The notes under the pieces are model-generated. The model had not been told where the DNA came from and made no database searches. It saw nothing but the letters and a program-made list of their open reading frames with translations. 64,000 nucleotides of DNA, taken from contig JANQNB010000023.1 in NCBI GenBank assembly GCA_028279755.1, forward strand, positions 13,390 through 77,389. Reading direction: 5' to 3'. How positions within the stretch are numbered: position 1 is the first letter of the stretch; the number at the start of each line of letters is the position of its first letter. A program made the position numbers and the translations under genes. Below, one piece after another: positions 3,828 through 50,300 of the stretch. The stretch comes from Candidatus Nanoarchaeia archaeon. Its GTDB lineage: Archaea; Nanobdellota; Nanobdellia; Woesearchaeales; UBA525.

Positions 3828-3853
3828 CTATGGAAAAACATAAAATACATTCC

Positions 3854-5311
3854 ATGTTGCTACCCGGGGTGAGAGATGACTGGATTATTGCGGGCGAGTG
3901 GGATAACATCCCGATGTTTATCATCGACTCGTGGAATGGCATTTACAACAACACCGTAACAAAGGAACTGTGCGGCGACTTCCTGCGCGTTCTTCAGTTC
4001 ACCACAGGGAAGAATCATGAATACATGTACCTCTCCACGAGCAGCGAGCAGCATCTTGTCGAACTTCTTCGGGACATGTTCCGGAAAGACGCAAAAGCGT
4101 TCCATAAAATCATGGACAACTACTACAAACAACGCGAGAAGAACCTTGAGCGCATGCGAGAGATCGCAGCCCTTGACCTCCGCAAGCTCAGCAACAAAGA
4201 ACTGCTCGAGGTTTTCCGCGAGTCTCGCACGCTCGTCGGCTACAGCGGGGCGCATGATTGGTTCAGCTTCGGCGTTGATCGTCGTATTATTGATATTGTA
4301 GAGCTCGACGAATATTTCAAAGAGCATCCGGAAGAGAAAGATGCCATTCTGAATTTCACGAGTCCTGATGCCTTGCTGACGACTATCAAAGAGGAAATTG
4401 AGCTCCTCAGTCTTGCCAAGAAAGCGAAAGGTCTCAGTCGCGAAGGGATTAAGAAAGAATTCGAAAAGGAGCTCGCACAACTCAGTGAAGACTTCGGATG
4501 GCTGAGCGCGCTCATCTATTATCCTATCAAGAATGCGGCCGCTTATGCTGAAGAGATCCATGAACTGTCGCAGAAAGACACGCTTGATGAGGAACTCGAG
4601 GAGAAAGAGAACTACACCGCAAATATCAACAAGGCGCTCGCGGAATACATCAAAGAGAAGCAACCGCCGCAGAAGGTCATTGATAGCATCAACGCGATCA
4701 GAAAACTCAGTGAGATACGCGCTGTTGGTGAAATGGATGCCATCTATGGCTTCACTCGATTCCGCAACATTGACAAGGAGATCCAATCACGATTCAGTCT
4801 AAGCCAGGATCAGTATTATGCCTTGTATCTTGACGAAGTGGAAGCCTTGCTGAAAGGCCGAACGATCGAGATCGACTACGATCAGCGTTTTGAACTTGAT
4901 GGCACCTACCGTGACGATGATGGCAAGTTCCAGGAGGTCGAGAAGGCTACAGAACTCTTTGCGCGGCTCCAGAAGCAAAAACGACAAGGCGAAGAGCTCA
5001 AAGGCATGCCAGGTTGCCCAGGAACTGCTCGCGGAACTGTGCGGATTATTCGTGGTTCGAACGATATTGGCAGTTTCAAAGAAGGGGACATACTTGTCGC
5101 AAAAGCTACCTGTGTCGATTATGTCGTGATCATGAAGAAAGCGGGTGCGATCGTGACCGAATATGGCGGGATAACTTCTCACGCTGCAGTCGTCTCGCGC
5201 GAGCTGGGCGTTCCGAGCGTGATCGGCGTTCCCAACGTAACCGAGCTGCTGAAAGAAGGCGAACGCGTTGAGGTCGACGCAGACAAAGGCGCGATCACAC
5301 GAATAGAATAA
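3854..5311 (+). CDS. PEP-utilising-enzyme mobile (swivel His) domain protein, paralogue 1
   Basis: C-terminal CPGTARGTVRII...GDILVAKATCVDYVVIMKKAGAIVTEYGGITSHAAVVSRELGVPSVIG matches the phospho-His swivel domain of PpsA/PPDK. The N-terminal ~330 aa are helical and unassigned. An alternative start is ATG 3830 (ORF track), but that sits directly on the TATA box. Confidence 0.75.
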   Translation: MLLPGVRDDWIIAGEWDNIPMFIIDSWNGIYNNTVTKELCGDFLRVLQFTTGKNHEYMYLSTSSEQHLVELLRDMFRKDAKAFHKIMDNYYKQREKNLERMREIAALDLRKLSNKELLEVFRESRTLVGYSGAHDWFSFGVDRRIIDIVELDEYFKEHPEEKDAILNFTSPDALLTTIKEEIELLSLAKKAKGLSREGIKKEFEKELAQLSEDFGWLSALIYYPIKNAAAYAEEIHELSQKDTLDEELEEKENYTANINKALAEYIKEKQPPQKVIDSINAIRKLSEIRAVGEMDAIYGFTRFRNIDKEIQSRFSLSQDQYYALYLDEVEALLKGRTIEIDYDQRFELDGTYRDDDGKFQEVEKATELFARLQKQKRQGEELKGMPGCPGTARGTVRIIRGSNDIGSFKEGDILVAKATCVDYVVIMKKAGAIVTEYGGITSHAAVVSRELGVPSVIGVPNVTELLKEGERVEVDADKGAITRIE

Positions 5312-12149: not shown

Positions 12150-13514
12150 TTACTCAGCCCTGCGAGCATGGCCCTTTGTCGCGTCGAGCTTGATTGTATC
12201 GCCGTCTGCGAAGCTGACTGTTCCATTGAGCGTGCCAACGATGCATGGCTTCTTCAGCTCGCGTGAGATGATCGCAGCGTGGCACGTAACCCCGCCCTCG
12301 TCAGTGATGATGCCCACGCTTTTCTCGATCGCGGCGATATAGTCAGGCGTGGTCATAGTGGTGACGAGAATGCGACCAGGTTTCATCTTGTTCAGCTGTG
12401 CTTTGGTCTTGATCACACAAGCCGGAGCTTCGATTGTTCCCGGATAGCAGGACATGCCCCTCACTTCCTTGCTGGCTTTCGCAATCGGCAGGCCTTTCAA
12501 CAAGGATGCAGGAGGTGTTCCTGTATAGATGACCGTCTTGCCATTGACAAGATCATCGTTGTAATGCTCCATCCGTTCTTTGAGGTCGCTAGGGATCTGC
12601 TTGGCGTCGAGTTCCTCGATCGTGAAATACGGCATCTCCTCACTGCGCACGTCGAGCTGCTGTGCCATGGCTGCGAGCAAGGGCATGGAGCAATAGCCGA
12701 AGTGCGTGAGTGCGTCTTTCTTGTCAGTCCTGAGTGTAATGATGTCGCGGAGCACGGGAATCCAGGCTGACAACTCCTTGTCCACAGCATATTTCGCTGC
12801 TTCCTCTTCTGCTTTTGCCTCAAGCTCTTTAAGGTTTGCTTCAAACTCTGCAAGCGTTTTCTCTGGTTCCTTGATCTCCTTGATGCGCTGTCTGTAGAAC
12901 TCCTTTGTGAACGGCGTTCCCTTGAAATGGCGCATGTCTTGCCAGCAGAAACGCTCAGTGTGTTTTTCCAATCCTTCTTCTGAGAAATCGACCGCAAGCT
13001 TGTACAAGGACTCTTGTTCTGCAGTCGCCATGGTGTGCTTGGATGCCACTGCAAGCGTGGTGAAGGAGGTGTTGACATCCTTTGTGTGCTTCTTGAGCAG
13101 GGCCTTGATGCGTCGCTCGACTTCCTGGTCGATGCCATAGCCAAGCGGGTATATCTCAGCGAATACTGGATACGCAATGTCCAAGGCCTTGTGGAATTTC
13201 TCGAGTAACTCGGCATAAGAGAGCCCTGTCATCCTGTCTTGGCGCAGTTTTCTTGCATGTGCATAGAGCTTCTCAACATCTGCATAGAATTGCCTGACCA
13301 GGCCAGCGAAATATGTAACTGCTTGCTGTTTCAGGATTTCCGCAAAAGTCGCATGCTCGTCTTCATCAAGATAAATGCTGGCATCAACTGTCCGGCGATG
13401 GTGCACGCAGAAATCCAGATCCAACAGCTTGCGCATAGGCTCACCCCATGAGTAGTTCAGCAAACTGCTCCAGAGTGGTGTATGCTCTCGTACAACTCCT
13501 TTTTCCCACTTCAC
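12150..13514 (-). CDS. PEP-utilising mobile-domain protein, paralogue 2
   Basis: C-terminal CYPGTIEAPACVI...ILVTTMTTPDYIAAIEKSVGIITDEGGVTCHAAIISRELKKPCIVG. Proposed start is GTG 13514 (MKWEKG...), about 28 nt downstream of AAATATAAAA; ATG 13436 is the alternative. The remainder of the 774-aa track ORF is antisense to cdc48. Confidence 0.7.
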   Translation of the reverse strand: MKWEKGVVREHTPLWSSLLNYSWGEPMRKLLDLDFCVHHRRTVDASIYLDEDEHATFAEILKQQAVTYFAGLVRQFYADVEKLYAHARKLRQDRMTGLSYAELLEKFHKALDIAYPVFAEIYPLGYGIDQEVERRIKALLKKHTKDVNTSFTTLAVASKHTMATAEQESLYKLAVDFSEEGLEKHTERFCWQDMRHFKGTPFTKEFYRQRIKEIKEPEKTLAEFEANLKELEAKAEEEAAKYAVDKELSAWIPVLRDIITLRTDKKDALTHFGYCSMPLLAAMAQQLDVRSEEMPYFTIEELDAKQIPSDLKERMEHYNDDLVNGKTVIYTGTPPASLLKGLPIAKASKEVRGMSCYPGTIEAPACVIKTKAQLNKMKPGRILVTTMTTPDYIAAIEKSVGIITDEGGVTCHAAIISRELKKPCIVGTLNGTVSFADGDTIKLDATKGHARRAE

Positions 13515-13620
13515 CAGGTTTTGGAGAATGCTGTGCGTTTTATATTTTTCTTCGTCGAGAAGCCAGCGTAAACCTTTTAAACCGCCTGGAAATACGGCGC
13601 AGTAACGCTGGTGGTAAGAA

Positions 13621-15918
13621 ATGACTGTTCCTGAAGTGAAACTCAAGGTCGCGGAAGCGATCCAAGACGACGTCAACAAAGGTATCGTCAGGCTCGATTC
13701 CGGGTATATGCGCGAGCTTGACATCAGGCCCGGCAATATTGTCGAGATCAATGGCGAGCGCGGCACTGTCGCGATCGCTGATCGCTCCTTGCCTGGCGAC
13801 ATCGGCCTGAACATCATCCGCATGGACGGCCTGATCAGAAGGAATGCGCGCACGACGATCGGCGAACAGGTCAAGGTGAAGAAAGCCGAGGTGCACGAGG
13901 CGAAGAAAGTCACGATCGCACCTGCCAGAAGCGGCATCATGATCAGAGCGAATCCGCAGATCTTCAAGCGCGGCCTTCTGGGACGAGCAGTCCTGAAAGG
14001 CGACATTGTCGGGCTCGGCGGCACGAAGCGACGAAAGAGCGCGATGAGCGACAACCCCTTCTTCAGCGACATGGACCTCTTCTCAAGCATGATCAACGAA
14101 TCGTTCACCTTCGGGCTCGGCGACCTGAAGTTCGTGGTGGTCGATGTCCAGCCTGCGAAGAAAGCAGTGCTCGTGACTGAGCACACGGACGTGGTCTTCA
14201 ATCCTGAAGCAGTCGAGCTGAAAGACGAGGAGAGCGCGATCGACGTCTCGTACGAGGACATCGGCGGCCTGGACGAAGAGCTGGCGAAAGTGCGCGAGAT
14301 GGTCGAGCTGCCACTGAAGCATCCGGAGATCTTCGAACGCCTCGGGATAGAACCGCCGAAAGGCGTGCTCTTGCACGGCCCGCCAGGCACAGGAAAGACC
14401 CTGCTGGCGAAAGCTGTCGCGAACGAGACCCAGAGCAACTTCTTACTGATCAACGGCCCGGAAATCATGAGCAAGTATTACGGCCAGAGCGAAGAGAATT
14501 TGCGCAAGAAGTTCGAAGAAGCGGAGAAGAACGCGCCTTCCATCATCTTTATCGATGAGATCGACGCGATCGCGAGCAAGCGCGAGGAGAGCAAGGGTGA
14601 AGTCGAGCGGCGCGTAGTTGCGCAACTCTTGGCGATCATGGACGGCTTGAAATCGCGCGGCAAGGTCGTTGTCATCGCCGCGACAAACATCCCGAACCAA
14701 CTCGATCCTGCATTGCGGCGACCTGGACGGTTCGACCGCGAGATCGAAATAGGTGTGCCAGGCGTTGCCGGCAGGCTCAATATCCTTAAGATCCACACGC
14801 GCAACATGCCCTTGGACGACAAAGTCAACCTGAAACGATTGTCTGAAGTCACGCACGGCTTTGTGGGCGCCGACCTGTCCAGCCTTGCGAAAGAAGCGGC
14901 GATGATCGTGCTTCGGCGCGCGCTGCCTGACCTGAACCTGAAGGAAGACGAAGAGATCCCGAAGGAAGTCCTGGAGAAGCTCTTCATCAAGCAGCAGGAT
15001 TTCGTTGACGCGCTCAAGGTTGTGCGTCCGAGCGCGATGCGCGAAGTCCTCGTGCAGGTGCCTGACGTGAAATGGACTGACATCGGCGGCCTGGACGACG
15101 TGAAACAAGAACTTGTCGAAGCTGTCGAATGGCCATTGAAGCATAAGAGCGCGTTCACCCGCTTGGGTGTGAAACCGCCGAAAGGCGTGTTATTGTACGG
15201 GCCGCCAGGCACAGGCAAGACGCTCTTGGCAAAAGCTGTCGCGAACGAAAGCGAGGCAAACTTCATCCTGGTGAAAGGCCCAGAGATGCTGAGCAAATGG
15301 GTCGGCGAGAGCGAGAAGGCGGTGCGCAAGATCTTCGAGAAAGCAAGGCAGACAAGCCCAAGTATTATCTTCTTCGACGAGATTGATAGCATTGCGCCAC
15401 GCCGCGGGCTCGGCGGCAACGAGAACAACAATGTTGCAGAGCGTGTTGTCAATCAATTGCTGACTGAGATGGACGGCTTGCAGGAGCTGCAGGACATCGT
15501 CATTGTAGCAGCAACGAATCGGCCAGACATCATCGACACCGCCTTGCTGCGGCCTGGACGCTTCGATAGGATCATCCTCGCGCCGGTGCCGGACAAGCCG
15601 ACACGGAAGAAGATCTTCGACGTGCACACCAAGGACATGAAGCTGGGCAAGGACGTGAATATCAGCGCGATGGCTGAGCGAACAGACGGCTATGTCGGCG
15701 CTGACATCGAAGCGGTATGCAGGGAAGCAGCGATCATGGCGCTCCGGAAGGACATCAAGGCGAAGAATGTCGGCATGGACTTCTTCGAGGAAGCCCTGAA
15801 CAAGGTGCGCCCGAGCACCACGAAGGAGATCGAGGACAGCTATAAAGAGCTCGAGAGCCACTTCCGGACCGCGCAAGGCGCGCGCATGAAAGACGAGAAG
15901 CCGAGCTATTATGGATAA
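13621..15918 (+). CDS. cdc48: Cdc48/VCP-type AAA+ ATPase (two AAA domains)
   Basis: 765 aa with a double-psi-barrel-like N-domain and two [17 protein letters not shown] Walker A modules with DEID Walker B. Confidence 0.92.
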
Positions 15919-22391: not shown

Positions 22392-23228
22392 ATGGTAGGG
22401 CGTGTTGCATGCATACTCATTCTTCTCCTGCTTGCGGCCTGCGCCAGCGAGCCGCAACTCGAGCCGCTGAATGAGACAAACCAGACGGAAAACGTCACAG
22501 TGCCTGAGCCAGAGGCGCCGGTCGTTGAACCTGTCGACGAAGATCCTGAACAGCCGCCAGTACAGCCTCCTGAGAGAACGCCAATTGAGAAAGCGCCAGT
22601 GCCTGACTGGCTTGCCACGTTTGCGAACAAGGCGCCGAGCTACAGCTACATCATCCAGGATGAAACCCTTGGCGAGGTCATGATCAGGATGCAGCCTGGC
22701 GAGATCCAATACCGGCCGCTCGAGTACTTCTTCGAGGTCGAAGACGACGTGATCACGCTGTCGCGCATTGAGCTCGAAGATGCGGACGAGGACCTGGTCG
22801 AGGACATCGAACAAGGCGATGAAGTCCTCATCCATTACGCGTGGAAGAGCGGGAACAATCCGGTGAGCGGGTGCTACCTCCACAGCAGTCGGCGCTTCGC
22901 GTACGAGGTCGAGAACTGCATCGACGTCGCGGATGTGCAGCTCATCCACGAGAACCTTGCCTTCCCGGTCGAGCTCGTGCTCGCGCACGACTGGTACGAG
23001 CGCTATTTCGACGAACTCCCGTACAAGACCGAGCAAGGCTACGATCACGAGGATGATTATTCTGACCGGGATTATATCGCGACGCGCGCGTATTACGACA
23101 ACGGCGACGGCACCACGACCGTGCTGTACGTCGAGGAGTTCTTCAAGTTCATCCTGAAAGTGCAAGTGCTCAACAAGGACAATCTTGTTCTGGAAGATTA
23201 CGAGTACGGCGGCCTGACGCTGGGGTGA
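22392..23228 (+). CDS. putative lipoprotein with acidic/Pro-rich linker
   Basis: Start moved to MVGRVACILILLLLAACAS (lipobox). The 3' end overlaps the convergent LAGLIDADG-like ORF by 31 nt. Confidence 0.6.
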   Translation: MVGRVACILILLLLAACASEPQLEPLNETNQTENVTVPEPEAPVVEPVDEDPEQPPVQPPERTPIEKAPVPDWLATFANKAPSYSYIIQDETLGEVMIRMQPGEIQYRPLEYFFEVEDDVITLSRIELEDADEDLVEDIEQGDEVLIHYAWKSGNNPVSGCYLHSSRRFAYEVENCIDVADVQLIHENLAFPVELVLAHDWYERYFDELPYKTEQGYDHEDDYSDRDYIATRAYYDNGDGTTTVLYVEEFFKFILKVQVLNKDNLVLEDYEYGGLTLG

Positions 23229-23803
23229 AGATGTTCTTGAATCAGATCGATCACTCTTCTTAGAAGCACATCACTTACATAAATATGGCAGATTCCTGTT
23301 GGAGATGTCGCGTTTGATTTTTCAAACAATCTAATTTGTTCTGGTGACACATTTAGCTTCGCTCTCCAGTATTGTTCAACTTTTTCAGAAGGATCTTTTA
23401 CGAAAATCTGAACTGCACCCACAGGCAGATCAATCCTCTTGAGCAACCACTGACGCTCAAGTTCGTCGAGAACTGCTCGCATGTCTTTCGCATTCGAATT
23501 AGTAATAGTCACCCGACGATAGTTCGATTTTCCTAGTTTATTCGCACCTTCACCCTCGAGAAATCCCAAAACCCAAAAGAAAGATGAACTAAGTTCAATT
23601 CGACTAGGAAATAATCGCTTCACTAGTCGAGGTACAGCGGAGTTCAAGACGCGATAAAAAACTAGAATCTCCTTCTCAGAAACTTGCTCAACTTCCAGGG
23701 AATATTCCGCACTAGTTGTCCAAGAGGGATATGTGAGTTTACCTTCAACAACTGGTTGCAGTTCTAGCCACTGTCCGAGTTCCGCACAAATTTCCGATTT
23801 CAT
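23198..23803 (-). CDS. LAGLIDADG homing-endonuclease-like protein, single motif, free-standing
   Basis: 201 aa from MKSEICAELG. FFWVLGFLEGEGANKLGKSNYRRVTITNSNAKDMRAVLDEL fits a LAGLIDADG-type helix plus following strands. Visibly AT-richer than its neighbours, with its own CTTATAAG box upstream. The track's 315-aa version runs through the tRNA. Confidence 0.5.
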   Translation of the reverse strand: MKSEICAELGQWLELQPVVEGKLTYPSWTTSAEYSLEVEQVSEKEILVFYRVLNSAVPRLVKRLFPSRIELSSSFFWVLGFLEGEGANKLGKSNYRRVTITNSNAKDMRAVLDELERQWLLKRIDLPVGAVQIFVKDPSEKVEQYWRAKLNVSPEQIRLFEKSNATSPTGICHIYVSDVLLRRVIDLIQEHLHPSVRPPYS

Positions 23804-23874
23804 ACTAAAACCTTGAAATCGTGAAATTTGAAGGAAGGAGGGCTTATAAGCGCTGCGTACGGTTGACCAGTGCT

Positions 23875-23919
23875 TAAAAAAGAAAAACGGAGGACTTCCG
23901 AAAAATCCGGAAGCCCTCC
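23875..23919 (-). terminator. 12-bp hairpin plus T-runs directly after the tRNA
   Basis: Reverse strand reads GGAGGGCTTCCG-GATTTTT-CGGAAGTCCTCC, followed by GTTTTTCTTTTTT. Confidence 0.6.
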
Positions 23920-23923
23920 TGAG

Positions 23924-24082
23924 TAGCGGGGGGAGGATTTGAATTCGGCGGGGACCAGCACTCGACTGTATCCCCTCCTCCGACCTCCGGGTCTCTCCTG
24001 TTCCGAAGAACGGTATGAGCCCGACGGGCACTCCTAGTTGGGCGTTCTGCCAAACGAGGCAGGAACTCTGCCCTACCCCGCT
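23924..24082 (-). tRNA. initiator tRNA-Met (CAT) carrying three insertions/introns (D-arm ~30 nt, canonical 37/38 21 nt, T-arm 33 nt)
   Basis: Reverse strand reads AGCGGGG-TA-GGGC-[40 nt incl. D-loop]-GCCC-G-TCGGG-CTCATA-[21 nt]-A-CCCGG-AGGTC-GGAGG-[33 nt]-TTCAAAT-CCTCC-CCCCGCT-A. It has A1:U72, three G:C pairs at the base of the anticodon stem and a CAU anticodon. Confidence 0.85.
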
Positions 24083-24104
24083 GGGTACGGCGAACTCGAG
24101 GCGC

Positions 24105-24112
24105 TTTATAAA
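24105..24112 (-). promoter_or_regulatory. TATA box of the tRNA-iMet gene
   Basis: TTTATAAA ends 22 nt upstream of tRNA position 1. Confidence 0.6.
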
Positions 24113-24244
24113 GCTTTGGCGTTGTCGCACCACTGCGGCAGCCATCCGCTATCACTCCCTACGTGTATCAGATTCAGTAAGTCTACAAGTGCAATACAGA
24201 GGCTGTCAAGGCAGTGGTGCTACTGTCTGCAATGAGAAAGCGTG

Positions 24245-24358
24245 ATCAGTCCCACCAGCATTCGATGGCGTCGTCAGCTGGCGTGCGCTGGCCAAGATCC
24301 TCCACACGCGGGTCCCGATACAATCGCATCCTCTCTGGACTCTTTGCTGACATCTTCA
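24245..24358 (-). CDS. small protein A of the ECWWD family (37 aa, or 35 aa from the second ATG)
   Basis: MKMSAKSPERMRLYRDPRVEDLGQRTPADDAIECWWD. GGAGG lies 8 nt before the second ATG (24352), and TATGTATAAATA sits upstream. Confidence 0.6.
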
Positions 24359-24441
24359 TCCCCTCCAGTGTATGCTAAGGTATGAAGGTATTTATACATA
24401 TGCAGCCGAAAACGTATCAAAGAGGTCGCATTTCGCCGTTT

Positions 24442-24570
24442 TCAGTCCCACCAGCACTCGACACGGTCGTCAGCATCTGTGCGCTTGTCCAGCTCGACCA
24501 GTCGTTCCTCGTAGGGCTTCGGCTTGTATTTCTGTTTTTTCGGCCTTTTCACCAGCTTGGGCTTTTTCAT
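24442..24570 (-). CDS. small protein B of the ECWWD family (42 aa)
   Basis: MKKPKLVKRPKKQKYKPKPYEERLVELDKRTDADDRVECWWD, with AGGTG upstream. Confidence 0.6.
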   Translation of the reverse strand: MKKPKLVKRPKKQKYKPKPYEERLVELDKRTDADDRVECWWD

Positions 24571-24674
24571 AGGAGCACACCTACTAGCTCCTGTTGGCGT
24601 AAGCAGGGAGAAGTAAAACAACTATTTATTGATAGTGACCGAGAATTGGGCAAAACAGGCTGTAATGGCCGGAA

Positions 24675-24767
24675 TCAGTCCCACCAGCACTCGACACGGT
24701 CGTCAGCAGGGCCTTTAGGACCGAGCTCTGTGACACGTGGATCGTTGGTATTGGACTTTGAATTCAT
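24675..24767 (-). CDS. small protein C of the ECWWD family (30 aa)
   Basis: MNSKSNTNDPRVTELGPKGPADDRVECWWD. Compared with copy A it carries multiple synonymous differences in the conserved tail (GAC/GAT, CCG/CCA, GTG/GTC, CTT/CTC, GGC/GGT, GAA/GAG). Confidence 0.6.
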   Translation of the reverse strand: MNSKSNTNDPRVTELGPKGPADDRVECWWD

Positions 24768-24869
24768 GTGTTTGCCCCCAATTATATTAACTACTAAGAA
24801 GTGGTAAAACTAATATATAAAATTTTCGATTGTGCTTTTAAACAGCCTGTACTGGCAGAATTCAACAGA

Positions 24870-25718
24870 TCACGCTGGATCGATGTGCACAAAGGCCTTG
24901 TTCACTTCTGGCAAGCGCTCGATATCATGCTGCACGCTCATGGCAATCGTGTGTGCGACGCCCGAAGCGACGCGGGAATTGACCAGGATGTGGATCTCGA
25001 CATGGACATAACTGCCGACATAATGGCTCCGAATCTTATGGATGCCGCGCACGCCGCGGACAGCGCTGGCCGCATGCCGGATCTTGTGATCCAGGGATTT
25101 CGGCGGAGCAGCACCCAAGAGATAGTCGACATTCTTCCTGCCAAGCTTATACGCTTCGTTGAACAGGAAGATGCTGATGATCAGGGCTGCGACGTCATCC
25201 AGCCAGGGAAAGCCGGTCGAGGCGAAGACCAGGCCTGCAAGGGCTGTGCACGTGATCAGCACGTCGTTCCTGCTGTCGTCGCTGGTCGCGAACAAGGCCG
25301 GGCTGCGCGCCTTCAAGGCAGCGACATGGGCCTCGTGGCTGAGCAGGATCTTCGCGACGATCGCTATGAGCAGGCTCGCCACGATCAGCCAGTCGAGATG
25401 GTGCGGGCCGCTGCCGCCAATGAGGTTGAAAGCCGCGCTCCGTAGGAATTCGAAGGCGGCGATGCCCATCAGGATCGCGATGACAAACGCCACCATGGGC
25501 TCTGCCCGGGCGTGGCCGAACGGATGCCCTTTGTCCGCTTTCTTATGGCTCTCCCTGACGCTCCAATGCACGCCGAAGCTGTAGAGCATGTCCAACAGAG
25601 AATTTGTCGCGTCTGCGAGCACAGCGAGAGAGTTTGCTGCGATGCCAGCGAAGAGTTTCAGGATGAAGAGCGTGCCATTAATGACGATCGAAAGAACCGT
25701 GACTCGCTTCGCGTGCAC
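24870..25718 (-). CDS. cation diffusion facilitator (CDF) family metal efflux transporter
   Basis: LFAGIAANSLAVLADATNSLLD ... GHPFGHARAEP; six TM helices plus a C-terminal cytoplasmic domain. Confidence 0.8.
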   Translation of the reverse strand: MHAKRVTVLSIVINGTLFILKLFAGIAANSLAVLADATNSLLDMLYSFGVHWSVRESHKKADKGHPFGHARAEPMVAFVIAILMGIAAFEFLRSAAFNLIGGSGPHHLDWLIVASLLIAIVAKILLSHEAHVAALKARSPALFATSDDSRNDVLITCTALAGLVFASTGFPWLDDVAALIISIFLFNEAYKLGRKNVDYLLGAAPPKSLDHKIRHAASAVRGVRGIHKIRSHYVGSYVHVEIHILVNSRVASGVAHTIAMSVQHDIERLPEVNKAFVHIDPA

Positions 25719-25769: not shown

Positions 25770-26972
25770 CTAGCTTCGCAGCCAGGCCGCTTCTTCAGGG
25801 TCGAGCTCAAGCTGCTCGCTGATCATTGAGGCTGTTGCTTTGTCGTTCTGGAAGATGGGCTTGAGCAGGAGCACATCATTGAGCACGCGTCGCGTGCTTG
25901 CATGACTCGCCGCGCCGAGCTTTTCCGCGATGGCTTTCTTCTTCGCGTTGCGCGCGTTCGCCATCCAGATCATCAAGGGGCGCGAAGAGCGCTTGTACTT
26001 CGGCACTGTCGCGTACTTCTCCTTCTTTGCCAAAGCGATGCCGGCAGTGAAGAGCTTGTAGATGTAAACGTAGAAACGGTAGTACTGCCATCGCCGGATG
26101 CGACCGAAGAATTTGTCAGCCTCAGCCAGGACGTCGTAGGCGTTTGCCAAGTCTTCCGGTTTTGTGTATTCCTTCGGCAGGTTCGCATCGATCCAGAGGA
26201 AGAGCTGGTCGATATCCACGTCGACATTGTCGAACGCTGGCAAGGCGACGTCTGCGCTTGTGGTTTTGAAGACGCGCGTGAGCGCTTGCTCGATCGCTTC
26301 TTTCTGTTCCCGCTCGCCCAGCGCTTCGAGCTCTTGCATCGTGATTTTTTTCCCGTCGCTGAGTGTCTGCAGGTCGTTGATCGCGGCGCGGGCGTCACCG
26401 CCGACACGGTGCGCGATGGCACTGATCGCTTTGTCTTCTGCTGCGATCTTCTCTGATTTCGCGATGCGCGTCAGCAAGACAGCGATGTCTTTTGCGGAAA
26501 GCGGGTCGAACGCGACGCACTCCGCCGCTTTCTTCAAGGCTTTCAGTTTCTTGCTCTCTACATCGTTGCACGTCACGATGACAGGAAAGCGCGCGTCCTT
26601 CACCAGCGCGATCACTGCCTGGATCCCGCCGCGGTCCTTCATGCCTGACAAGCCGTCAGCCTCGTCGACAAGGATGACCTTGCCTTTGAAGAACAGGCTT
26701 TGTTGGTTCAAGGCAGCGCCGAGCAATTCGTTGATCGCCGCTTTGTTGCGTACGTCGCTGGCGTTGACTTCGATCACTTCGAGATCCAGCTCTTCGGCAA
26801 GCGCGTACACGCTCGCGGTTTTGCCTGTGCCAGGCGGCCCGTAGAGCAGGAGCGGCTTCGCTCCCTTGGCATGCGATGACACAAACTGTCGAATGCGTTC
26901 GACTCCTTTGTCTTGGCCAACGACCTCCTTCGCGCTGTACGGCGCGTGCTTGCGGATCCATGGGAGTGGCAT
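25770..26972 (-). CDS. rfcL: replication factor C large subunit
   Basis: PWIRKHAP...VVGQD...[19 protein letters not shown]...EVNASDVRNK, then ILVDEADG. Confidence 0.85.
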   Translation of the reverse strand: MPLPWIRKHAPYSAKEVVGQDKGVERIRQFVSSHAKGAKPLLLYGPPGTGKTASVYALAEELDLEVIEVNASDVRNKAAINELLGAALNQQSLFFKGKVILVDEADGLSGMKDRGGIQAVIALVKDARFPVIVTCNDVESKKLKALKKAAECVAFDPLSAKDIAVLLTRIAKSEKIAAEDKAISAIAHRVGGDARAAINDLQTLSDGKKITMQELEALGEREQKEAIEQALTRVFKTTSADVALPAFDNVDVDIDQLFLWIDANLPKEYTKPEDLANAYDVLAEADKFFGRIRRWQYYRFYVYIYKLFTAGIALAKKEKYATVPKYKRSSRPLMIWMANARNAKKKAIAEKLGAASHASTRRVLNDVLLLKPIFQNDKATASMISEQLELDPEEAAWLRS

Positions 26973-28336: not shown

Positions 28337-28750
28337 CTAACGTGTTGCTTTCTCCGGCACACGGTACTCTTCCCATCTGACTTTCTTCGCCTTGATCGCG
28401 TCGCGCAGGCTGCGTTCAACGCTGCTTAAGCGCGAGCCGCCAGATTTGACCTCGACGAACACGACCTCGTCGATCGCCTTGTCATCCATGCCTGTGAACA
28501 CGAGGAAATCGATGGGCTTGCCGATGAAGCGGGCTTCTGTGGGCTTCCAGGGAAAGTCCGGCAGGAAGGGCGCCAATTGCTCACTGAACTGTCCAGAAAG
28601 GACTGCGCGCGAGCGCTTGATCGCATCTTTCCTGATGTCTTCGACGTCTTCCTTCAAGCGCTGTTTCATCACCGCCTTGCCGAGCAGGTAGCCGAGCCAG
28701 GCTGCGATCGCTGCGGCGAGAACAATGAGGATGACGCTGAGGAGATCCAT
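28337..28750 (-). CDS. membrane-anchored Holliday-junction-resolvase-like (PD-(D/E)xK) endonuclease, COG4741-type
   Basis: N-terminal TM (LLSVILIVLAAAIAAWLGYLLG), then a coiled segment, then PIDFLVF...VVFVEVKSGGSRLSSVERSLRDAI. Confidence 0.6.
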   Translation of the reverse strand: MDLLSVILIVLAAAIAAWLGYLLGKAVMKQRLKEDVEDIRKDAIKRSRAVLSGQFSEQLAPFLPDFPWKPTEARFIGKPIDFLVFTGMDDKAIDEVVFVEVKSGGSRLSSVERSLRDAIKAKKVRWEEYRVPEKATR

Positions 28751-31543: not shown

Positions 31544-32722
31544 TTATTCAGCGACAGTCAGCGCTTCTTTCACCAGCTTCATCGCCTGCTCGACATCATC
31601 CGCGTTCGTGTTCCTGCTCAAGCGGACACGGGCAAATGCTTTCGCGACCCTGATCACGCCGATCACCGTTCTGGGTCCGATCTCGACCAGGAGATTCTTC
31701 TCCTCTTTCTTCAGCTGCTCGATGAAGTCGACGATCATGCTCTCGTACTTGTCGTCGAACGCGACGTTCAGTTTCAATGCGTACTCGCTGTACTCCTTGA
31801 CAAAGCGGGCGTCGCCGTCCTCGATCTCGCGCACGTCGTTGCGCACGATCTTCCGCGTGATCTTCTCCAATTCCTTGCCTTTCGGCTTGCGGATCAGGAA
31901 GACGAGATGGAATCGTGAGAGGAGCGCGTCGTCGAACGGGAGTTGCGCGCGCAGGAACTTCACGTCCTTGCCCACGAACTTGTCGCCTTTCGGGTTCGCG
32001 CTCGCGAGGACGCGGATGCGCGCCTTGAATTTCTCGTGCTTGCCTTTCTTGTCATAGGTGACAAAGCCTTTCTCCATCGCACTGTACAAGCCTGCGCGAT
32101 CCTCCTTTTTCATCAGGTTCAGCTCGTCGATGCAGGCAAGGCCTTCGTCAGCCTCGACCAACAAGCCAGGGTTGAATTCCTTGCCTTCGTACACGCCGAC
32201 AAGCCCGGCCTTGCTCGCGCCAGAACCGAGGCCGAAGATCGCGTGCGGTGCGAGGCGTTCACTGCTTCGCAGGATCTCAGTCTTGCCAGTGCCGGGATCG
32301 CCGAGGAGGAGGACATGGAAGGCTTCCTGGGCGAAGAGAAGCAGCGCTGCTGCCTGTTTCGCGTCCTGCATGCCGACGATGTTCGGAGCCACGATGCCGC
32401 TGATCTTTGCCAGCGCGTCCTTGCGAAACAAACGGAAGGCATCAAGCTTCGCCGCATCCGCTACCTTGCGGTTGATCCGTTTCACGAAGTCGGCCACGCG
32501 TTCTTCCTCTGTCGCGAGGTCGAGCTGCACCCAGCTCGTGTCTGGGCAGATCCTCGCGCCGAACTGTTCTTCATGGAAGCCGATCTTGCGCAGCTTGCTC
32601 AGGTACTTGATATCGCTGAGCTCACGCTTGCCCACGTACTGGCTGAGCCGCTTGATCATGCTTCTCCGGGAGCGTCCGAACGGCAGGATGAGCCGGAACA
32701 CGTCGATGAGCCGCTTCTTCAT
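31544..32722 (-). CDS. MCM-family AAA+ ATPase lacking the N-terminal OB/zinc-finger domain
   Basis: 392 aa from MKKRLID. APNIVGMQDAKQAAALLLF, GDPGTGKT, CIDELNLM and LLSRFHLVF (arginine-finger region) are colinear with the MCM catalytic core. Only about 105 aa precede it. Confidence 0.7.
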   Translation of the reverse strand: MKKRLIDVFRLILPFGRSRRSMIKRLSQYVGKRELSDIKYLSKLRKIGFHEEQFGARICPDTSWVQLDLATEEERVADFVKRINRKVADAAKLDAFRLFRKDALAKISGIVAPNIVGMQDAKQAAALLLFAQEAFHVLLLGDPGTGKTEILRSSERLAPHAIFGLGSGASKAGLVGVYEGKEFNPGLLVEADEGLACIDELNLMKKEDRAGLYSAMEKGFVTYDKKGKHEKFKARIRVLASANPKGDKFVGKDVKFLRAQLPFDDALLSRFHLVFLIRKPKGKELEKITRKIVRNDVREIEDGDARFVKEYSEYALKLNVAFDDKYESMIVDFIEQLKKEEKNLLVEIGPRTVIGVIRVAKAFARVRLSRNTNADDVEQAMKLVKEALTVAE

Positions 32723-32766
32723 GCAGGCCCTGAGCCGCGCGCTGTTAATAAATATTTGGAGAATAG

Positions 32767-32776
32767 TTTTATAAAA
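32767..32776 (+). promoter_or_regulatory. TATA box in the divergent MCM-like / AP-superfamily intergenic region
   Basis: TTTTATAAAA lies about 22 nt upstream of ATG 32798, with GGAGG in between. A second AT box, TTAATAAATATTT, faces the other way. Confidence 0.4.
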
Positions 32777-32797
32777 CGCGGGAGGCCAGTTCAGCGC

Positions 32798-33928
32798 ATG
32801 CACAAGCCTGACTACAACGGCGGCTCGATCCTGAATCTCATGGCCAGCATCATCGCCGCGCGCGGCGGGAAGCGCGAGTACAAAGAGCTTTCCTCGCTGC
32901 GCGCCAAAGAGCTCAAGGATGCTGACAACCTGGTCTTGCTGGTCATTGACGGCATGGGCTATGAATGGTTGCGCAAGCATGGCAAAGGCAGCTTTCTCGC
33001 TTCGCAGGTGCGCGCGCAGCTGACTTCAGTGTTTCCTGCGACAACGTCAGCGGCAATGACTGCAATCTACACCGGCGTGCCGGCGAAGAAGCACGGGCTC
33101 ACGTGCTGGCACATGCTCTTCAAGGAATGCGGCATGGTGCTCGCCGCCCTGCCGCCGCACACCCGGAGCTGGCAGCTCGACCTTGAGCATATGAAACCCC
33201 GGCAAGTGGTGCCGGTAACGAGCGTCTTCGAGAAGATCGACATGCCGAGCTTCCAGATCCAGCCGAAAGAATTCAAGGATTCCGCCTATAACAAGCGCGT
33301 GAGCGCTGGCGCAAAGATCCTGACATACACGAAGTTGGGCGGAATGTTCCGCAAGATCAAGAAAGCGATGAAACAGCCAGGCAAGAAATTCGTGCTCGCG
33401 TACTGGCCAGAACTCGATCTCATCCTGCACCATGCGGGCACGAAGAGCGCGGAAGCGCAGCAGCATTTCAAGGTGCTCGACAAGAAGCTCGCGCGCTTTG
33501 TGAAGAAAGTGAACAACGCCACACTAGTCATCACTGCAGACCATGGTTTGCACGATGTGTCGCGCAATGTCTGGGTGCACAAACATCCGGTGATGGAAGA
33601 AGCGATGTCATTGCCGCTGTGCGGGGAAGGGCGATTAGCGTATGCGTACGTCCATCCTGAGAAGGCGAAGAAATTCGAGAGCTATGTCAAGCGGAAACTG
33701 AAGCACGCGTGCACGATCCATAAGAGCAAAGACCTGCTTTCCTGGTACGGGCCTGGCAAGGCGCATCCGCATCTGCAGCATCGCATCGGGGATTATGTTC
33801 TCATCGCCAAGCCCGGCTGGGCGATCAAGGATCGTGTCTGGGGCGAAGGCGGCTCGATGAGCACCGCACGACACGCAGGCGTTTCAAAAGAAGAGATGCA
33901 CGTGCCGCTGATCGTCATTGAGAAATGA
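32798..33928 (+). CDS. alkaline-phosphatase superfamily protein (nucleotide pyrophosphatase / PglZ-like)
   Basis: 376 aa from MHKPDYNGG. LLVIDGMGYEWL, SVFPATTSAAMTAIYTG and VITADHG motifs. The upstream part of the 661-aa track ORF is antisense to the MCM-like gene. Confidence 0.7.
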   Translation: MHKPDYNGGSILNLMASIIAARGGKREYKELSSLRAKELKDADNLVLLVIDGMGYEWLRKHGKGSFLASQVRAQLTSVFPATTSAAMTAIYTGVPAKKHGLTCWHMLFKECGMVLAALPPHTRSWQLDLEHMKPRQVVPVTSVFEKIDMPSFQIQPKEFKDSAYNKRVSAGAKILTYTKLGGMFRKIKKAMKQPGKKFVLAYWPELDLILHHAGTKSAEAQQHFKVLDKKLARFVKKVNNATLVITADHGLHDVSRNVWVHKHPVMEEAMSLPLCGEGRLAYAYVHPEKAKKFESYVKRKLKHACTIHKSKDLLSWYGPGKAHPHLQHRIGDYVLIAKPGWAIKDRVWGEGGSMSTARHAGVSKEEMHVPLIVIEK

Positions 33929-35354
33929 TTTTGACTATGCCTTTTTCTGCGTCGACTTCGATAAGATCACCGTCCTTGAAGATGCGTGTGGCGTCTTTTG
34001 TGCCAATCACACAGGGCGTACTCATCTCCCTGGCAACAATCGCGGCGTGACAGCTCAAGCCGCCTTCGTCAGTGACCATCGCAGCAGCTTTCTCTATAGC
34101 AGGAACATAATCAGGGGTTGTCATGCCGGTAATGAGAATGTCGCCCTGCTTGACCTTATCGATCTCTTTTGCTGAGTTAAGTACTCTTGCAACTCCTGTG
34201 ACTTTTCCTCTATGCGCGACTTGACCTTTTACCACATTCTCATCCAGCAAGTCACCTTCAACAATCTTCAGGATATTCTCATCCGGACCATCAAGATCAT
34301 ACAACTGCATGTCCTTGAGTATGAAACCGTACCATTTCCTACGCTTATTGATTCGTTCTGTGTCGAGCTGCTCACCCTCGAGTCCTTTTTCAATCTCCCA
34401 ATAGTACGCTGCCGATACACTTTGCAAACCGAGCTTCTTCTGAATCGCTTCGAAAAGATCGTTCAATGCATAGGCTGATTCGATCAATGCTTCAAGGCGC
34501 CGAAACCTGACAAGTGGCAATTGCTGCGCATCGACAAAGAGCCTGAGCAAGCGCTCGCTGAATTTGTATTTCGATGTCAGCGCTGCTTGCCTCTCCTTGA
34601 TTGCCGCTGTTTCTTCTTGCATTGCTTGCAATTCCTTTTCAGGATCTTTCATGGCTTCAATCTCTGCTGTGAAGGTTTCAAACGACACAGGCTCAAACCA
34701 GATACCGTGATCTTCAAGCCATTTGTACTGGTCATACACTTTCCTGATCGCTGACTCTGGCGCCTTGTCGACTGCGAGTTGCAGCATGGCTGCTCTCTTC
34801 AATTGCATGGTGGATGGCTCTGTCGACGAGATCATGCTTGTCATGGTGTCGAGAAAAACAGAGAAATCCTTTTTCGGGTCGATGTGCTTGGCGAGTTCAG
34901 CCTCAATCTCTGCACGCATCCATTCCTCAGGACCCAATGGAGGGAAGAGGTGGCTCATGAGCTTGATCGCTCGTTGCGTGTATTCCTGGAATCCTTGCAG
35001 CAGGTCTGTGAAGTCTTGCCCTTTTGCCCAGGAGACGATGTCTTCGCTATCTTGCAGTGCTTTGGCAAAATACTTGCTGAGAAACCTATCGTCCTTTTCT
35101 GCCTCAGCGATCATCGTCTGCTGGAGACGCGCGAATTCGTCCTCAGAATGGTAAACATCGTAATTCAGCAAAACGACTGTTGGCATTCTTGAATCAAAAC
35201 CGAGTTCTGGATTAATGATAGCATCGCCGACTCGCAAGTAGGAGTTCATGAGTGGGCTGTTCGCCCTTTTGACCACCTTATACCAATTGACGCCAGTGAT
35301 GTCAGGTAGTGTATCTGCTTGTACAACATTGTGTTCTTTGTCGAGCATTTTCAT
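33915..35354 (-). CDS. PEP-utilising mobile-domain protein, paralogue 3
   Basis: Start MKMLDKEHN overlaps the stop of paralogue 4 (ATGA at 35351-35354). C-terminal GDILITGMTTPDYVPAIEKAAAMVTDEGGLSCHAAIVAREMSTPCVIG. Confidence 0.75.
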   Translation of the reverse strand: MKMLDKEHNVVQADTLPDITGVNWYKVVKRANSPLMNSYLRVGDAIINPELGFDSRMPTVVLLNYDVYHSEDEFARLQQTMIAEAEKDDRFLSKYFAKALQDSEDIVSWAKGQDFTDLLQGFQEYTQRAIKLMSHLFPPLGPEEWMRAEIEAELAKHIDPKKDFSVFLDTMTSMISSTEPSTMQLKRAAMLQLAVDKAPESAIRKVYDQYKWLEDHGIWFEPVSFETFTAEIEAMKDPEKELQAMQEETAAIKERQAALTSKYKFSERLLRLFVDAQQLPLVRFRRLEALIESAYALNDLFEAIQKKLGLQSVSAAYYWEIEKGLEGEQLDTERINKRRKWYGFILKDMQLYDLDGPDENILKIVEGDLLDENVVKGQVAHRGKVTGVARVLNSAKEIDKVKQGDILITGMTTPDYVPAIEKAAAMVTDEGGLSCHAAIVAREMSTPCVIGTKDATRIFKDGDLIEVDAEKGIVKIISQ

Positions 35355-36415
35355 TCGATCTTCCTCACAACACCTTTCTCGGCGTCCACTTCGACGATGT
35401 CTCCATCGTTCAGGTCTTTTGTCGCGCGTTGCGTGCCGATGACACACGGCTTCTTGAGTTCGCGCGCGACGATCGCCGCATGACATAAGACGCCGCCGCC
35501 GTCAGTGACAAAAGCTGCGCTTTTTTCGATTAAAGGAACGTACTCTGGACGGGTCATTCCAGCAACAAGGATATCTCCTGGCTTGAAGTCTTTCGCTTTG
35601 TCAGGATCATGCACGATCTGTACACGGCCTTTCGCAGTTCCGGGATATGCTGTCTGACCTTCAATCTCATCGCTTTGTTTGCCGAGCACGAGTTCTTCTG
35701 CTTTTGTGACATCATCTCCAAGCAGGATGTGCATTTTGCCTTCGTGGAAATAGAATGCGCTTTGTTTGTTGCGTTGTTCGAGCATTGCTCTGTCTGGCAG
35801 TGTTCCATCTTGGAGGTATTGCTCAAATTCGTCTTTGGTCATTGCCCGGATAAGTTTTGCTGGGTAGCCAGTTTTTTTCTCGTGAAAAGCTGACAGCTGC
35901 ATGGTGAATTCCAGGAATTTGGTGAACAATGGCTCTGCATACACTCGAGCGTCTTCGAATTGTGGCAAATATTTTTTGAGAAGCTCGGCCGGAAGGTAGT
36001 CGACCAGCACCTTGACTTGGATGTGGTAGGGATAGTACTCGAGAACATTGTTGTGCAATCGCTGGAACTCTTCTAAGCTCACATCTTTACTCATGAGCTC
36101 GTCAAAAACCGCCATAAACTCATCAGTTGTCTTCTTCAGCAGCATGCATAGTTTGTCCACAAGTGCAGGGTCTTTCGCGATCTGCGCGATGAGTTCTTCG
36201 CTGAATCGTTTCTTGTCGGCGATGGGCTGGAAGCCTGCGCCCGTGCCATCATGCCAGGTGATGATGGTCTGGTGAACATAGCGCTTGATGTTGTCGGCAA
36301 AGGGCATCCGTGAATAGAATTCGCCAAAACGCGTGAGATCCACTGGCGGCCATCTGCCACTGAATTGGCTTTCCCACTTCGTAGCCGCGAGCGCTTGCTG
36401 AATCGCTGAGTCCAT
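35351..36415 (-). CDS. PEP-utilising mobile-domain protein, paralogue 4
   Basis: C-terminal GDILVAGMTRPEYVPLIEKSAAFVTDGGGVLCHAAIVARELKKPCVIG. Confidence 0.75.
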   Translation of the reverse strand: MDSAIQQALAATKWESQFSGRWPPVDLTRFGEFYSRMPFADNIKRYVHQTIITWHDGTGAGFQPIADKKRFSEELIAQIAKDPALVDKLCMLLKKTTDEFMAVFDELMSKDVSLEEFQRLHNNVLEYYPYHIQVKVLVDYLPAELLKKYLPQFEDARVYAEPLFTKFLEFTMQLSAFHEKKTGYPAKLIRAMTKDEFEQYLQDGTLPDRAMLEQRNKQSAFYFHEGKMHILLGDDVTKAEELVLGKQSDEIEGQTAYPGTAKGRVQIVHDPDKAKDFKPGDILVAGMTRPEYVPLIEKSAAFVTDGGGVLCHAAIVARELKKPCVIGTQRATKDLNDGDIVEVDAEKGVVRKIE

Positions 36416-50296: not shown

Positions 50297-50300
50297 CCAT

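Follow-up and report, generated by a model that had tools for sequence, protein, structure and literature searches.

Introduction

In the archaeon Methanosarcina mazei, the small protein sP26 binds glutamine synthetase and another, sP36, binds AmtB. Proteins of this kind, shorter than 50 amino acids (aa), are routinely missed by annotation, and to our knowledge they are almost wholly unstudied in DPANN archaea, hosts that are not culturable alone. Among metal exporters, the cation diffusion facilitators (CDFs) include the human ZnT family and the bacterial proteins FieF, CzcD and MntE. Small proteins that bind and modulate transporters are established in bacteria, where the known pairs include MntS-MntP, MgtS-PitA/MgtA, MgtR/MgtU, SgrT-PtsG and AcrZ-AcrB (PMC10710835). 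MntS of E. coli (42 aa), which acts on MntP, and its kin MgtS, MgtR/MgtU with MgtA/B, SgrT and AcrZ are all shorter than 50 aa, have a promoter of their own, are tied to a transporter and bind it directly (PMC10710835). For CDF exporters, the same review describes regulation by metal binding to the cytoplasmic domain only, and gives no small-protein partner of any CDF (PMC10710835). Here we describe three small genes, A, B and C, that lie in tandem downstream of a CDF exporter gene in a 64-kb stretch of contig JANQNB010000023.1 from a Candidatus Nanoarchaeia archaeon (this whole stretch is called the window below, and positions count from its first letter). They belong to a previously undescribed family of small proteins whose C-terminal ends are conserved and whose genes are linked to a single type of transporter.

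The family resembles MntS and its kin in that its genes encode only 25–45 aa, seem to be separately promoted and are attached to an exporter gene, probably one of the Mn/Fe type. It differs in that there is no sequence similarity, the exporter is a CDF rather than MntP/UPF0016 and the host is archaeal. Furthermore, the known modulators, MntS and SgrT excepted, are mostly peptides that span the membrane once. The proteins described here are instead highly hydrophilic and acidic, and their paralogues form a conserved pair or triple, unlike MntS-type modulators. With sP26 and sP36 of M. mazei they share an archaeal host, a length below 50 aa and the fact of having been missed by annotation, and those two proteins act by binding a larger partner; the sequences are however unrelated, a different partner is proposed and the genes come from a DPANN archaeon that is uncultured. 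Small proteins linked to a transporter are a known kind, while the family, its host and its link to a CDF are new, and its function we infer.

Three small genes with a common C-terminal module

We read the minus strand between positions 23900 and 25100 of the window and listed all open reading frames (ORFs) of at least 20 aa. Three of these, A, B and C (Table 1), terminate in ADDx[VI]ECWWD followed directly by the stop codon. The initial annotation of this stretch, made from the sequence without database searches, had proposed three tandem minus-strand small genes at this place, and all of its ORFs and translations were reproduced exactly. The pattern GARTGYTGGTGGGAY, back-translated from ECWWD, has three exact matches in the 64-kb window, and all of them are genes A, B and C. 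In our listing the ORF of gene B runs upstream of its ATG to a TTG at 24621. Because a Shine-Dalgarno (SD)-like element, GGAGGGG, abuts the first ATG of gene A, the true start of this gene may be the second in-frame ATG at 24353, 6 nt farther off, which would give a protein of 35 aa.

Contig retrieval and six-frame scans with a hidden Markov model (HMM) of the family gave a total of 19 members on 11 contigs, the window and ten others (other contigs are given here as L numbers and predicted proteins as P numbers). All members fall in the length range given above, and none is part of a longer protein. A homologue search of this kind had been suggested in the annotation, and it found the same module with the same stop position in all ten other contigs. 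The module has the form [DE]-x-R-[VLI]-x-E-L-x-x-[RK]-T-x-A-D-[DE]-x-[VIL]-E-x-[WYF]-[WM], then one or two residues and the stop codon. The conserved part is the C-terminal 22 residues, with R, D and E invariant, and it is conserved far more than chance would produce. More than 90% of members have W at the second aromatic position, and the WW pair is replaced by FM, YW or YY in some of them. Only one indel is seen within the core, a single in-frame codon in four members. The N-terminal 3–20 residues, on the other hand, vary in both length and sequence. The annotation had stated that the N-termini range from very basic in B to neutral in A and C; the basic tail of B turns out not to be conserved and is not a family feature. 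It had also considered metal binding through the single Cys, an idea that the family does not bear out, as the Cys of ECWWD is confined to this genome and is replaced elsewhere by H, W, A, Q, G, R, E, N or Y. A C-terminal docking motif of the HbYX type was considered and dropped, since the tail after the aromatic pair is one or two residues long and the penultimate residue is not Tyr or Phe.

Three subtypes can be told apart. Type 1, of the form (K)PYEER[LV]VEL[DG]KRTAADExIE, is represented by gene B of the window, L002a (which starts with DERVVEL), L003, L009a, L024b, L025a, L027, L028a and L104, and type 2, of the form DPR[VI]xEL.., by genes A and C of the window, L002b, L009b, L024a, L025b and L028b. 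The third subtype, of a DNRVIEL form, is found in L023 and L026, and P0011 on L103 is the most divergent member. As examples, the small genes downstream of the CDF gene encode MALASRLKNKVEHLPRDERVVELGTRDAADEHVEWWWN and MNRDPRIEELTPRTAADDRIEAWWV in the relative L002 and MKWDRVIPYEERVVLLDKGWTAADEYIEHFMN in the relative L003. The usual gene order is CDF, type 1, type 2 and initiator tRNA-Met (tRNA-iMet), as found in L002, L009 and L028; L025 has CDF, type 1 and type 2, after which the contig ends. In the window the order is CDF, C (type 2-like), B (type 1) and A (type 2), with gene C as an extra copy located between the CDF gene and the type-1 gene B, and L024 likewise has a C-like gene followed by a B-like gene. 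Genes C and A score 63.7 and 59.8 bits, respectively, against the family HMM. The nearest relative of gene C is L024a (P0002, MKESNTSDPRVTEVGQRTQADERVEHWWD), and gene B has the orthologues P0003, P0006, P0008, P0009 and P0010.

A codon listing of A and C shows seven synonymous differences over their common core; the annotation had counted at least seven, and all seven that it named are correct. B and C are identical over their last 34 nt including the stop codon (T GCT GAC GAC CGT GTC GAG TGC TGG TGG GAC TGA), an identity that we verified in the sequence. Recent gene conversion between B and C had been proposed on this ground, and it fits, since B is of subtype 1 and C of subtype 2, yet these 34 nt are the same. 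Because B and C share this end in spite of their types, and because all three copies share the otherwise unique ECWWD, the pattern is consistent with 3' ends that were homogenised by gene conversion in this genome, which would be the best explanation of the shared ends; the third copy would likewise have arisen in this genome.

Distribution of the family

Very few members exist in protein collections. A HMMER profile search of 1.84 billion representative proteins returned only five proteins, of 32–52 aa, and two word-index searches of 5.8 billion clusters yielded 11 proteins altogether, of 32–64 aa as called. An earlier word-index search found window protein B alone; most members are too short to be called as genes. 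Indeed, B is the only one of the three window genes that exists as a predicted protein (P0001) in the large collections searched, and the family provides a comparatively validated example of such genes that is linked to a single transporter. Six representative members had no match in Pfam or NCBIfam at E up to 10, the family profile had only a chance match (E=2) among PDB sequences, and there was no match in Rfam at E up to 1, in keeping with the statement in the annotation that the family was not recognised.

We also searched at the DNA level. The strict DDx[VI]ECWWD pattern had one match in GTDB genomes, where about one is expected; this match, in Gordonia sesuvii, is stop-terminated and lies antisense within a 477-aa Ser/Thr kinase gene, and we judged it to be chance. 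A looser DNA pattern, run against GTDB, JGI metagenome and IMG/VR contigs, gave one genuine new locus, L009, with two copies, and its other matches were rejected as they lack the upstream R[VI]xEL segment and have E values of 0.002 or worse against the family HMM. A longer protein ending in TVDADDPVETWWN and a stop codon, present on a freshwater metagenome contig (L011, 983–1015, minus strand) and on an IMG/VR viral contig (L022, 6827–6859, plus strand), is a C-terminal look-alike only, in which the upstream segment is missing (HMM E=0.06). Only a narrow clade of Woesearchaeota-like (DPANN) archaea carries the family. The contig of the L009 locus (also L029, CAZSAS010000010.1) bears the label 'uncultured Methanosarcinales archaeon'; it has the gene order of the window (CDF, small genes, tRNA-iMet, ACT-domain protein, PLD) and a CDF that shares 71% identity with that of the window, and the taxonomic label or the binning may be wrong.

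Codon-level conservation

We compared the 22-codon core between members by Nei-Gojobori counting of the proportions of synonymous (pS) and nonsynonymous (pN) differences. Type-1 orthologues have a pS of 0.62 and a pN of 0.22, giving a dN/dS of about 0.20, and type 2 has a pS of 0.76, at which synonymous sites are saturated, and a pN of 0.32. In single pairs, pS is 0.64 compared to a pN of 0.08 (L009b/L025b) and 0.87 compared to 0.17 (window B/L027). The mean pairwise differences among type-1 members at codon positions 1, 2 and 3 are 0.24, 0.20 and 0.47, respectively. Furthermore, the reading frame and the stop position are kept in all 19 members, with the stop 1–2 codons past the aromatic pair. 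The annotation had interpreted the differences between copies as purifying selection on protein rather than as a DNA repeat and had called for a dN/dS calculation; the ratio obtained for type 1 and the dominance of third-position variation agree with this. The codon-level conservation strongly supports coding, and we consider it very likely that A, B and C are real protein-coding genes under purifying selection.

The opposite view would be that the ORFs are untranslated and that the conserved block is a DNA or RNA element, such as a repeat, a regulatory RNA or part of an antisense gene. Such a block is indeed present three times at 64–73% nucleotide identity, and a 141-aa antisense ORF (24382–24807, plus strand) covers B and C. 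However, the codon-periodic substitutions and the constant frame and stop speak against a non-coding element, the antisense ORF is split into pieces of 25–73 aa in L002 and L003 and has no Pfam match, Rfam gave nothing within the limit stated above, and the RNA folds of the three mRNAs are no better than those of shuffled sequences (z-scores of -0.03, -0.97 and -1.52). This view is largely refuted and can be treated as effectively excluded.

Linkage to a CDF exporter gene

The exporter upstream of gene C matches the CDF superfamily in NCBIfam, and the FieF, MamM/MamB, Cdf31 and MntE models all score below their equivalog cut-offs. In the alignment its transport site A consists of N39-x-x-x-D43 in transmembrane helix 2 (TM2) and D148-x-x-x-D152 in TM5 and contains no His. 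According to a review of zinc transporters, variants of site A that lack His are associated with the transport of Mn, as in ZnT10 and MTP11 (PMC10932157), and because of its NxxxD/DxxxD site without His, the sequence of the window CDF suggests a specificity of the Mn/Fe type rather than for Zn. Three metagenome-assembled genomes labelled Candidatus Woesearchaeota have contigs with CDFs that share 79%, 69% and 59% identity with this protein, which makes the host of the window a Woesearchaeota-like DPANN archaeon.

Synteny could be judged in nine contigs with enough flanking sequence. In eight of these (the window, L002, L003, L009, L025, L027, L028 and L104) an orthologous CDF gene, whose product is 60–80% identical, lies immediately upstream of the small genes on the same strand. 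The array had been placed by the annotation between a CDF exporter and an intron-bearing tRNA-iMet gene; both were found (Table 1), and the adjacency to the CDF gene is the most informative feature of the locus. The other flanking genes vary. The CDF gene is preceded by the gene of the RFC large subunit in the window, by Ldh (on the opposite strand) and MetK in L027, by a 132-aa ORF, SHOCT and MarR in L028, and by a 154-aa ORF in both L009 and L025. A tRNA-iMet gene comes next after the small genes in four loci (the window, L002, L009 and L028); in L003, L027 and L104 its place is taken by a GNAT and a double ATP-grasp protein (L003), an unrelated 51-aa ORF, VIT1 and H+-PPase (L027) and an Asp-rich ORF (L104). 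The family HMM, run on 75 CDF loci of GTDB species representatives, found small genes only beside CDFs that are at least 69% identical to that of the window, and none beside the 59%, 41% and 40% identical CDF relatives. Judged by this distribution, the family is young, narrow and tied to one CDF lineage.

The neighbours in L003 raise a different idea, that the mini-proteins are precursors of ribosomally synthesised and post-translationally modified peptides (RiPPs), for example graspetide- or microviridin-like ones with Thr/Lys-Asp/Glu cross-links, encoded as tandem precursor copies. The GNAT and the 937-aa double ATP-grasp protein adjoin the small gene there, and the short tandem paralogues, with T, K/R, D and E in the core and aromatics near the C-terminus, do resemble microviridin and graspetide precursors. 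However, the same GNAT/ATP-grasp pair lies beside the CDF gene in L004, which has no small gene, and neither protein has a homologue in the 64-kb window, L027, L028 or L009. No radical-SAM, YcaO, lanthipeptide or peptidase-ABC genes recur in the neighbourhoods, and conservation is lowest in the N-terminus, the would-be leader, the opposite of what is seen in RiPP precursors. Modified peptides, which the annotation had listed among the possible roles, are thus not borne out, as no modification enzyme, ATP-grasp ligase or other, recurs in the neighbourhoods of the small genes, and we consider RiPP precursors very unlikely.

Promoter-like and terminator-like elements

Each copy had been credited in the annotation with its own TATA-like box and SD-like element, and we located the boxes and the purine-rich elements for all three genes. 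The AT-rich TATA-like boxes (Table 1) lie 28–63 nt upstream of the ATG. A purine-rich SD-like element resembling GGAGGTG precedes each gene, with a similar one, aagaggtggg, before the CDF gene, and a T-rich sequence follows each of the three stop codons. When upstream regions were compared, the 30 nt around the box of gene A were found to resemble the conserved type-2 promoter region in L009 and L025 (..ACGTTTCG.GCTCA.A.GTATAAGTA..). A sigma-70-type scan, a mere proxy for archaeal promoters, gave 5 AT-rich promoter-like sites compared to 0.7 expected. From these elements, A, B and C appear to be separately promoted.

The promoter regions of both the CDF gene and the small genes are rich in the pentamer GTAAC/GTTAC in three loci, L009, L025 and L028, where they hold 5 of 5, 5 of 5 and 5 of 7 of its occurrences, respectively (L009 701–756, 1774 and 2055; L025 639, 1630, 1868–1876 and 1955; L028 2276–2331 and 3549). 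The pentamers stand partly in inverted repeats, e.g., GTTACAGAAGGTGTAAC, and are scarce elsewhere in these three loci. The clusters hint at a candidate operator, through which a shared regulator might co-regulate the CDF gene and the small genes. A common operator in the window's own promoters was looked for and rejected; they contain no GTAAC/GTTAC, and the sole recurring element is a short palindrome, ACAG(G/C)CTGT. This palindrome, followed by T residues, occurs on the minus strand at 24842–24850 and 24655–24663, soon after the stop codons of the CDF gene and gene C, and a degenerate form, ACAGCCTCTGT, lies at about 24196–24207 (minus strand), after gene A. Judging from these positions it could be a terminator or a duplication-boundary signal.

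Predicted structure and proposed function

All 19 members are hydrophilic (grand average of hydropathy, GRAVY, -0.5 to -1.75) with no hydrophobic stretch, and no signal or transmembrane segment was found in any of them. The last 22 residues have a net charge of -1 to -5 and contain no conserved Cys or His. Secreted peptides and small toxins had been among the speculative roles offered in the annotation; the lack of signal or transmembrane segments and the low hydropathy argue against the first, and membrane-type toxins are excluded by the hydrophilicity of the whole family. We infer that these are cytoplasmic, acidic and largely disordered mini-proteins. An AlphaFold2 model of B, made from a 13-sequence alignment, has a mean predicted local distance difference test (pLDDT) score of 70.5 and contains one short helix, residues 32–38 (DADDRVE), with coil otherwise. 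When the sequence is projected onto a helix, one face carries A (i-4), [VIL] (i), W (i+3) and W (i+4), with the acidic residues opposite. This predicted anatomy suggests a short linear docking motif that would fold on a partner, rather than an autonomous domain, a membrane peptide or a metal-thiolate site.

One candidate partner is PCNA, which the D-x-x-[VIL]-E-x-[WYF]-[WM] C-terminus might bind in the manner of a PCNA-interacting protein (PIP) box, making the mini-proteins small clamp regulators or inhibitors like TIP of Thermococcales or eukaryotic p21. The spacing fits the PIP consensus Q-x-x-[LIVM]-x-x-[FYW]-[FYW], with V/I/L at position 4 and WW, YW, YY or FM at positions 7–8, and most archaeal PCNA partners carry their PIP motif at the C-terminus. 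As in archaeal C-terminal PIP boxes and TIP, an x-x-x-[VIL]-x-x-aromatic-aromatic sequence with a short predicted helix sits at the end of an otherwise disordered carrier, and the window does have the RFC large subunit upstream of the CDF gene and a Hjc-like endonuclease and MCM nearby. However, position 1 is Asp in 19 of 19 members and never the defining Gln, and the conserved upstream R-[VLI]-x-E-L-x2-[RK]-T segment has no PIP counterpart. The replication neighbourhood is not conserved either, other loci having Ldh, MarR or unknown genes, whereas the conserved neighbour is a metal exporter; no PCNA gene is present in the 64-kb window. On balance a PIP-box function seems improbable.

Because the CDF gene is the sole constant neighbour while all others have changed, the exporter itself is the likely target of any such docking. 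We tentatively propose, as a possibility that falls well short of even, that the mini-proteins are small-protein modulators that dock on the CDF and modulate efflux, by analogy with MntS and MntP. Their size and their genetic link to one specific transporter, found in the eight contexts out of nine listed above, are those of the modulator class. The exporter would be bound by the Trp-Trp C-terminal helix, with the cytoplasmic domain of the CDF as the likeliest site, and the docked mini-proteins would modulate metal efflux post-translationally, in the way that bacterial MntS and MgtS act on MntP and PitA/MgtA, respectively. Types 1 ('PYEER') and 2 ('DPRV'), which are normally paired, may act together. 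A more specific version, which is more doubtful still, is that with the type-1/type-2 pair a small-protein partner of a CDF would be known for the first time, an archaeal peptide switch that gates Mn/Fe export through the cytoplasmic domain and that is expanded to three copies and homogenised by gene conversion here. If docking on the exporter is true, it would be a new control layer for a universal transporter family, and if it is false, the finding is a modest one, a new narrowly distributed family of small proteins. The two Trp residues would provide an intrinsic fluorescence probe for tests with synthetic peptides.

Several observations weigh against docking on the CDF. The confidence of the AlphaFold2 model is moderate, and the CDF residues that are specific to genomes with small genes are 12 scattered positions that form no convincing binding patch. 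The genomic link has an exception in L103, where a malate/lactate dehydrogenase gene and not a CDF gene precedes that of P0011, the most divergent member, and the tRNA-iMet gene is likewise a frequent neighbour (4–5 of 9 loci). The loci are also fairly close relatives, as the CDF identities of 60–80% indicate, and the adjacency could in part be inherited synteny. Finally, the GTAAC/GTTAC motif that hints at co-regulation in other loci is absent from the window between 23 and 27 kb.

The linkage to the CDF gene would also be explained by a role in metal homeostasis without binding to the exporter, in which the mini-proteins would be acidic cytosolic metal-buffering or chaperone peptides that give Mn/Fe to the exporter or compete with it, or ligands of a metal-responsive regulator. 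The cores are strongly acidic with invariant D and E, a VIT1 Fe/Mn transporter adjoins in L027, and in L003, L004 and L104 the place downstream of the CDF gene is held by unrelated, extremely Asp-rich micro-ORFs (Table 1). This last point adds a little, although the micro-ORFs are found in three loci only and are putatively coding; none is present in the window. Furthermore, the family has no conserved Cys or His and no recognisable carboxylate-cluster motif, and its invariant positions include R, L and the aromatic pair, which points to protein-protein contact rather than ion binding. We regard such a role in metal homeostasis as unlikely, although less so than PCNA binding.

Table 1 Features of the array and its surroundings. 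Positions refer to the window unless a contig is named; promoter boxes were read from the sequence and are putative.
Feature	Position	Strand	Description
Initiator tRNA-Met-like gene	23924-24082	-	159 nt, downstream of gene A
Gene A	24246-24359	-	37 aa, MKMSAKSPERMRLYRDPRVEDLGQRTPADDAIECWWD; subtype 2, core DPRVEDLGQRTPADDAIECWWD
TATA-like box, gene A	24387-24399	-	atgtataaatacc, AT-rich; upstream regions compared, putative promoter
Gene B	24442-24570	-	42 aa from ATG, MKKPKLVKRPKKQKYKPKPYEERLVELDKRTDADDRVECWWD; subtype 1, core PYEERLVELDKRTDADDRVECWWD
TATA-like box, gene B	24619-24633	-	atcaataaatagttg, AT-rich; putative promoter
Gene C	24675-24767	-	30 aa, MNSKSNTNDPRVTELGPKGPADDRVECWWD; subtype 2-like, core DPRVTELGPKGPADDRVECWWD
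Second box, gene C	24781-24790	-	ttaatataat; read from sequence
TATA-like box, gene C	24811-24826	-	aaaattttatatatta, AT-rich, 44-59 nt before ATG; putative promoter
CDF metal exporter	24870-25718	-	Pfam Cation_efflux and ZT_dimer (2.7e-37 and 1.2e-13)
RFC large subunit	25770-26972		archaeal informational gene, upstream of CDF
Holliday-junction-resolvase-related endonuclease (Hjc-like)	28337-28750		archaeal informational gene
MCM	31544-32980		archaeal informational gene
Asp-rich micro-ORF	L003 1247-1303	+	MGDDDYDDEYDGDDDDWD; putative ORF
Asp-rich micro-ORF	L004 7096-7161	+	MGYDDPDFDSDDGGDDWDDDA; putative ORF; L004 is without the WW family
Asp-rich micro-ORF	L104 529-651	+	begins MGYDDEGDEGDELLGWD... 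/ MGYDDEGDEGDELLGWDIHGD...; putative ORF

The neighbouring initiator tRNA gene

The tRNA-iMet gene downstream of gene A is interrupted by three insertions, one of about 30 nt in the region of the D-loop, one of about 21 nt past the anticodon loop and one of about 33 nt within the T-loop. The unspliced gene was not detected by ARAGORN or Rfam, and after splicing by hand ARAGORN calls a tRNA-Met (CAT) of 75 nt. Its sequence has the A1:U72 pair that is typical of archaeal initiator tRNA, and a conserved promoter, GAAGCT(T/A)TATAAAG, precedes the gene in the window, L002, L009 and L028. The 13-mer GTCGAGTGCTGGT, which covers the V-E-C-W codons of B and C (24450–24462 and 24683–24695), recurs exactly and in the same orientation in the T-loop insertion (23954–23966). 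At a glance over the ORF translations of L002 no equivalent was seen there, and the recurrence may be chance or a trace of recombination.

A role tied to this tRNA or to translation would make the mini-proteins binders of a translation or tRNA-processing factor, or alternatively leader peptides that sense Trp codons. The tRNA-iMet gene follows the array in four loci, the 13-nt stretch from the 3' end of B and C is shared with its third intron, and the tandem Trp codons directly before the stop recall trp leader peptides, which carry such codons. However, the tRNA is not adjacent in L003, L027 and L104, where the CDF gene is, and the 13-mer match was not seen in L002. The replacement of WW by FM, YW or YY in some members indicates a constraint on aromatics and not on Trp codons, 20 further residues are conserved at the protein level, and no Trp-biosynthesis or tRNA-Trp gene lies downstream, the next genes being a small gene, tRNA-iMet, GNAT or others. 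There is only a slight chance that such a role is correct, and the Trp-leader idea joins RiPP precursors, PIP boxes and an RNA element among the explanations that we disfavour compared to docking on the CDF.

Other features of the window

A LAGLIDADG-like ORF lies directly downstream of the tRNA-iMet gene both in the window (23198–24145, minus strand, LGFLEGEG) and in L002 (1529–2176, plus strand, LGILLGDGS). The window ORF, of 315 aa, has no Pfam or NCBIfam match; it runs through the tRNA gene, which is probably an artefact of upstream extension.

The window has 54.5% G+C, and its archaeal informational genes include GatD and GatE besides those in Table 1. It also contains four or five paralogous genes within its 64 kb, at 3830–5311 (plus strand), 12150–14468 (minus), 33915–35486 (minus), 35351–36415 (minus) and 50190–51629 (plus). 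Three of these have a Pfam match to the phosphoenolpyruvate (PEP)-utilising-enzyme mobile domain together with a tail of the form ..DGDx[VI]EVDAEKG[IV]V.., the gene at 12150–14468 has the mobile-domain match with a looser tail, and those at 35351–36415 and 50190–51629 were recognised by the tail only. These PEP-utilising mobile-domain paralogues are an unusual local expansion.

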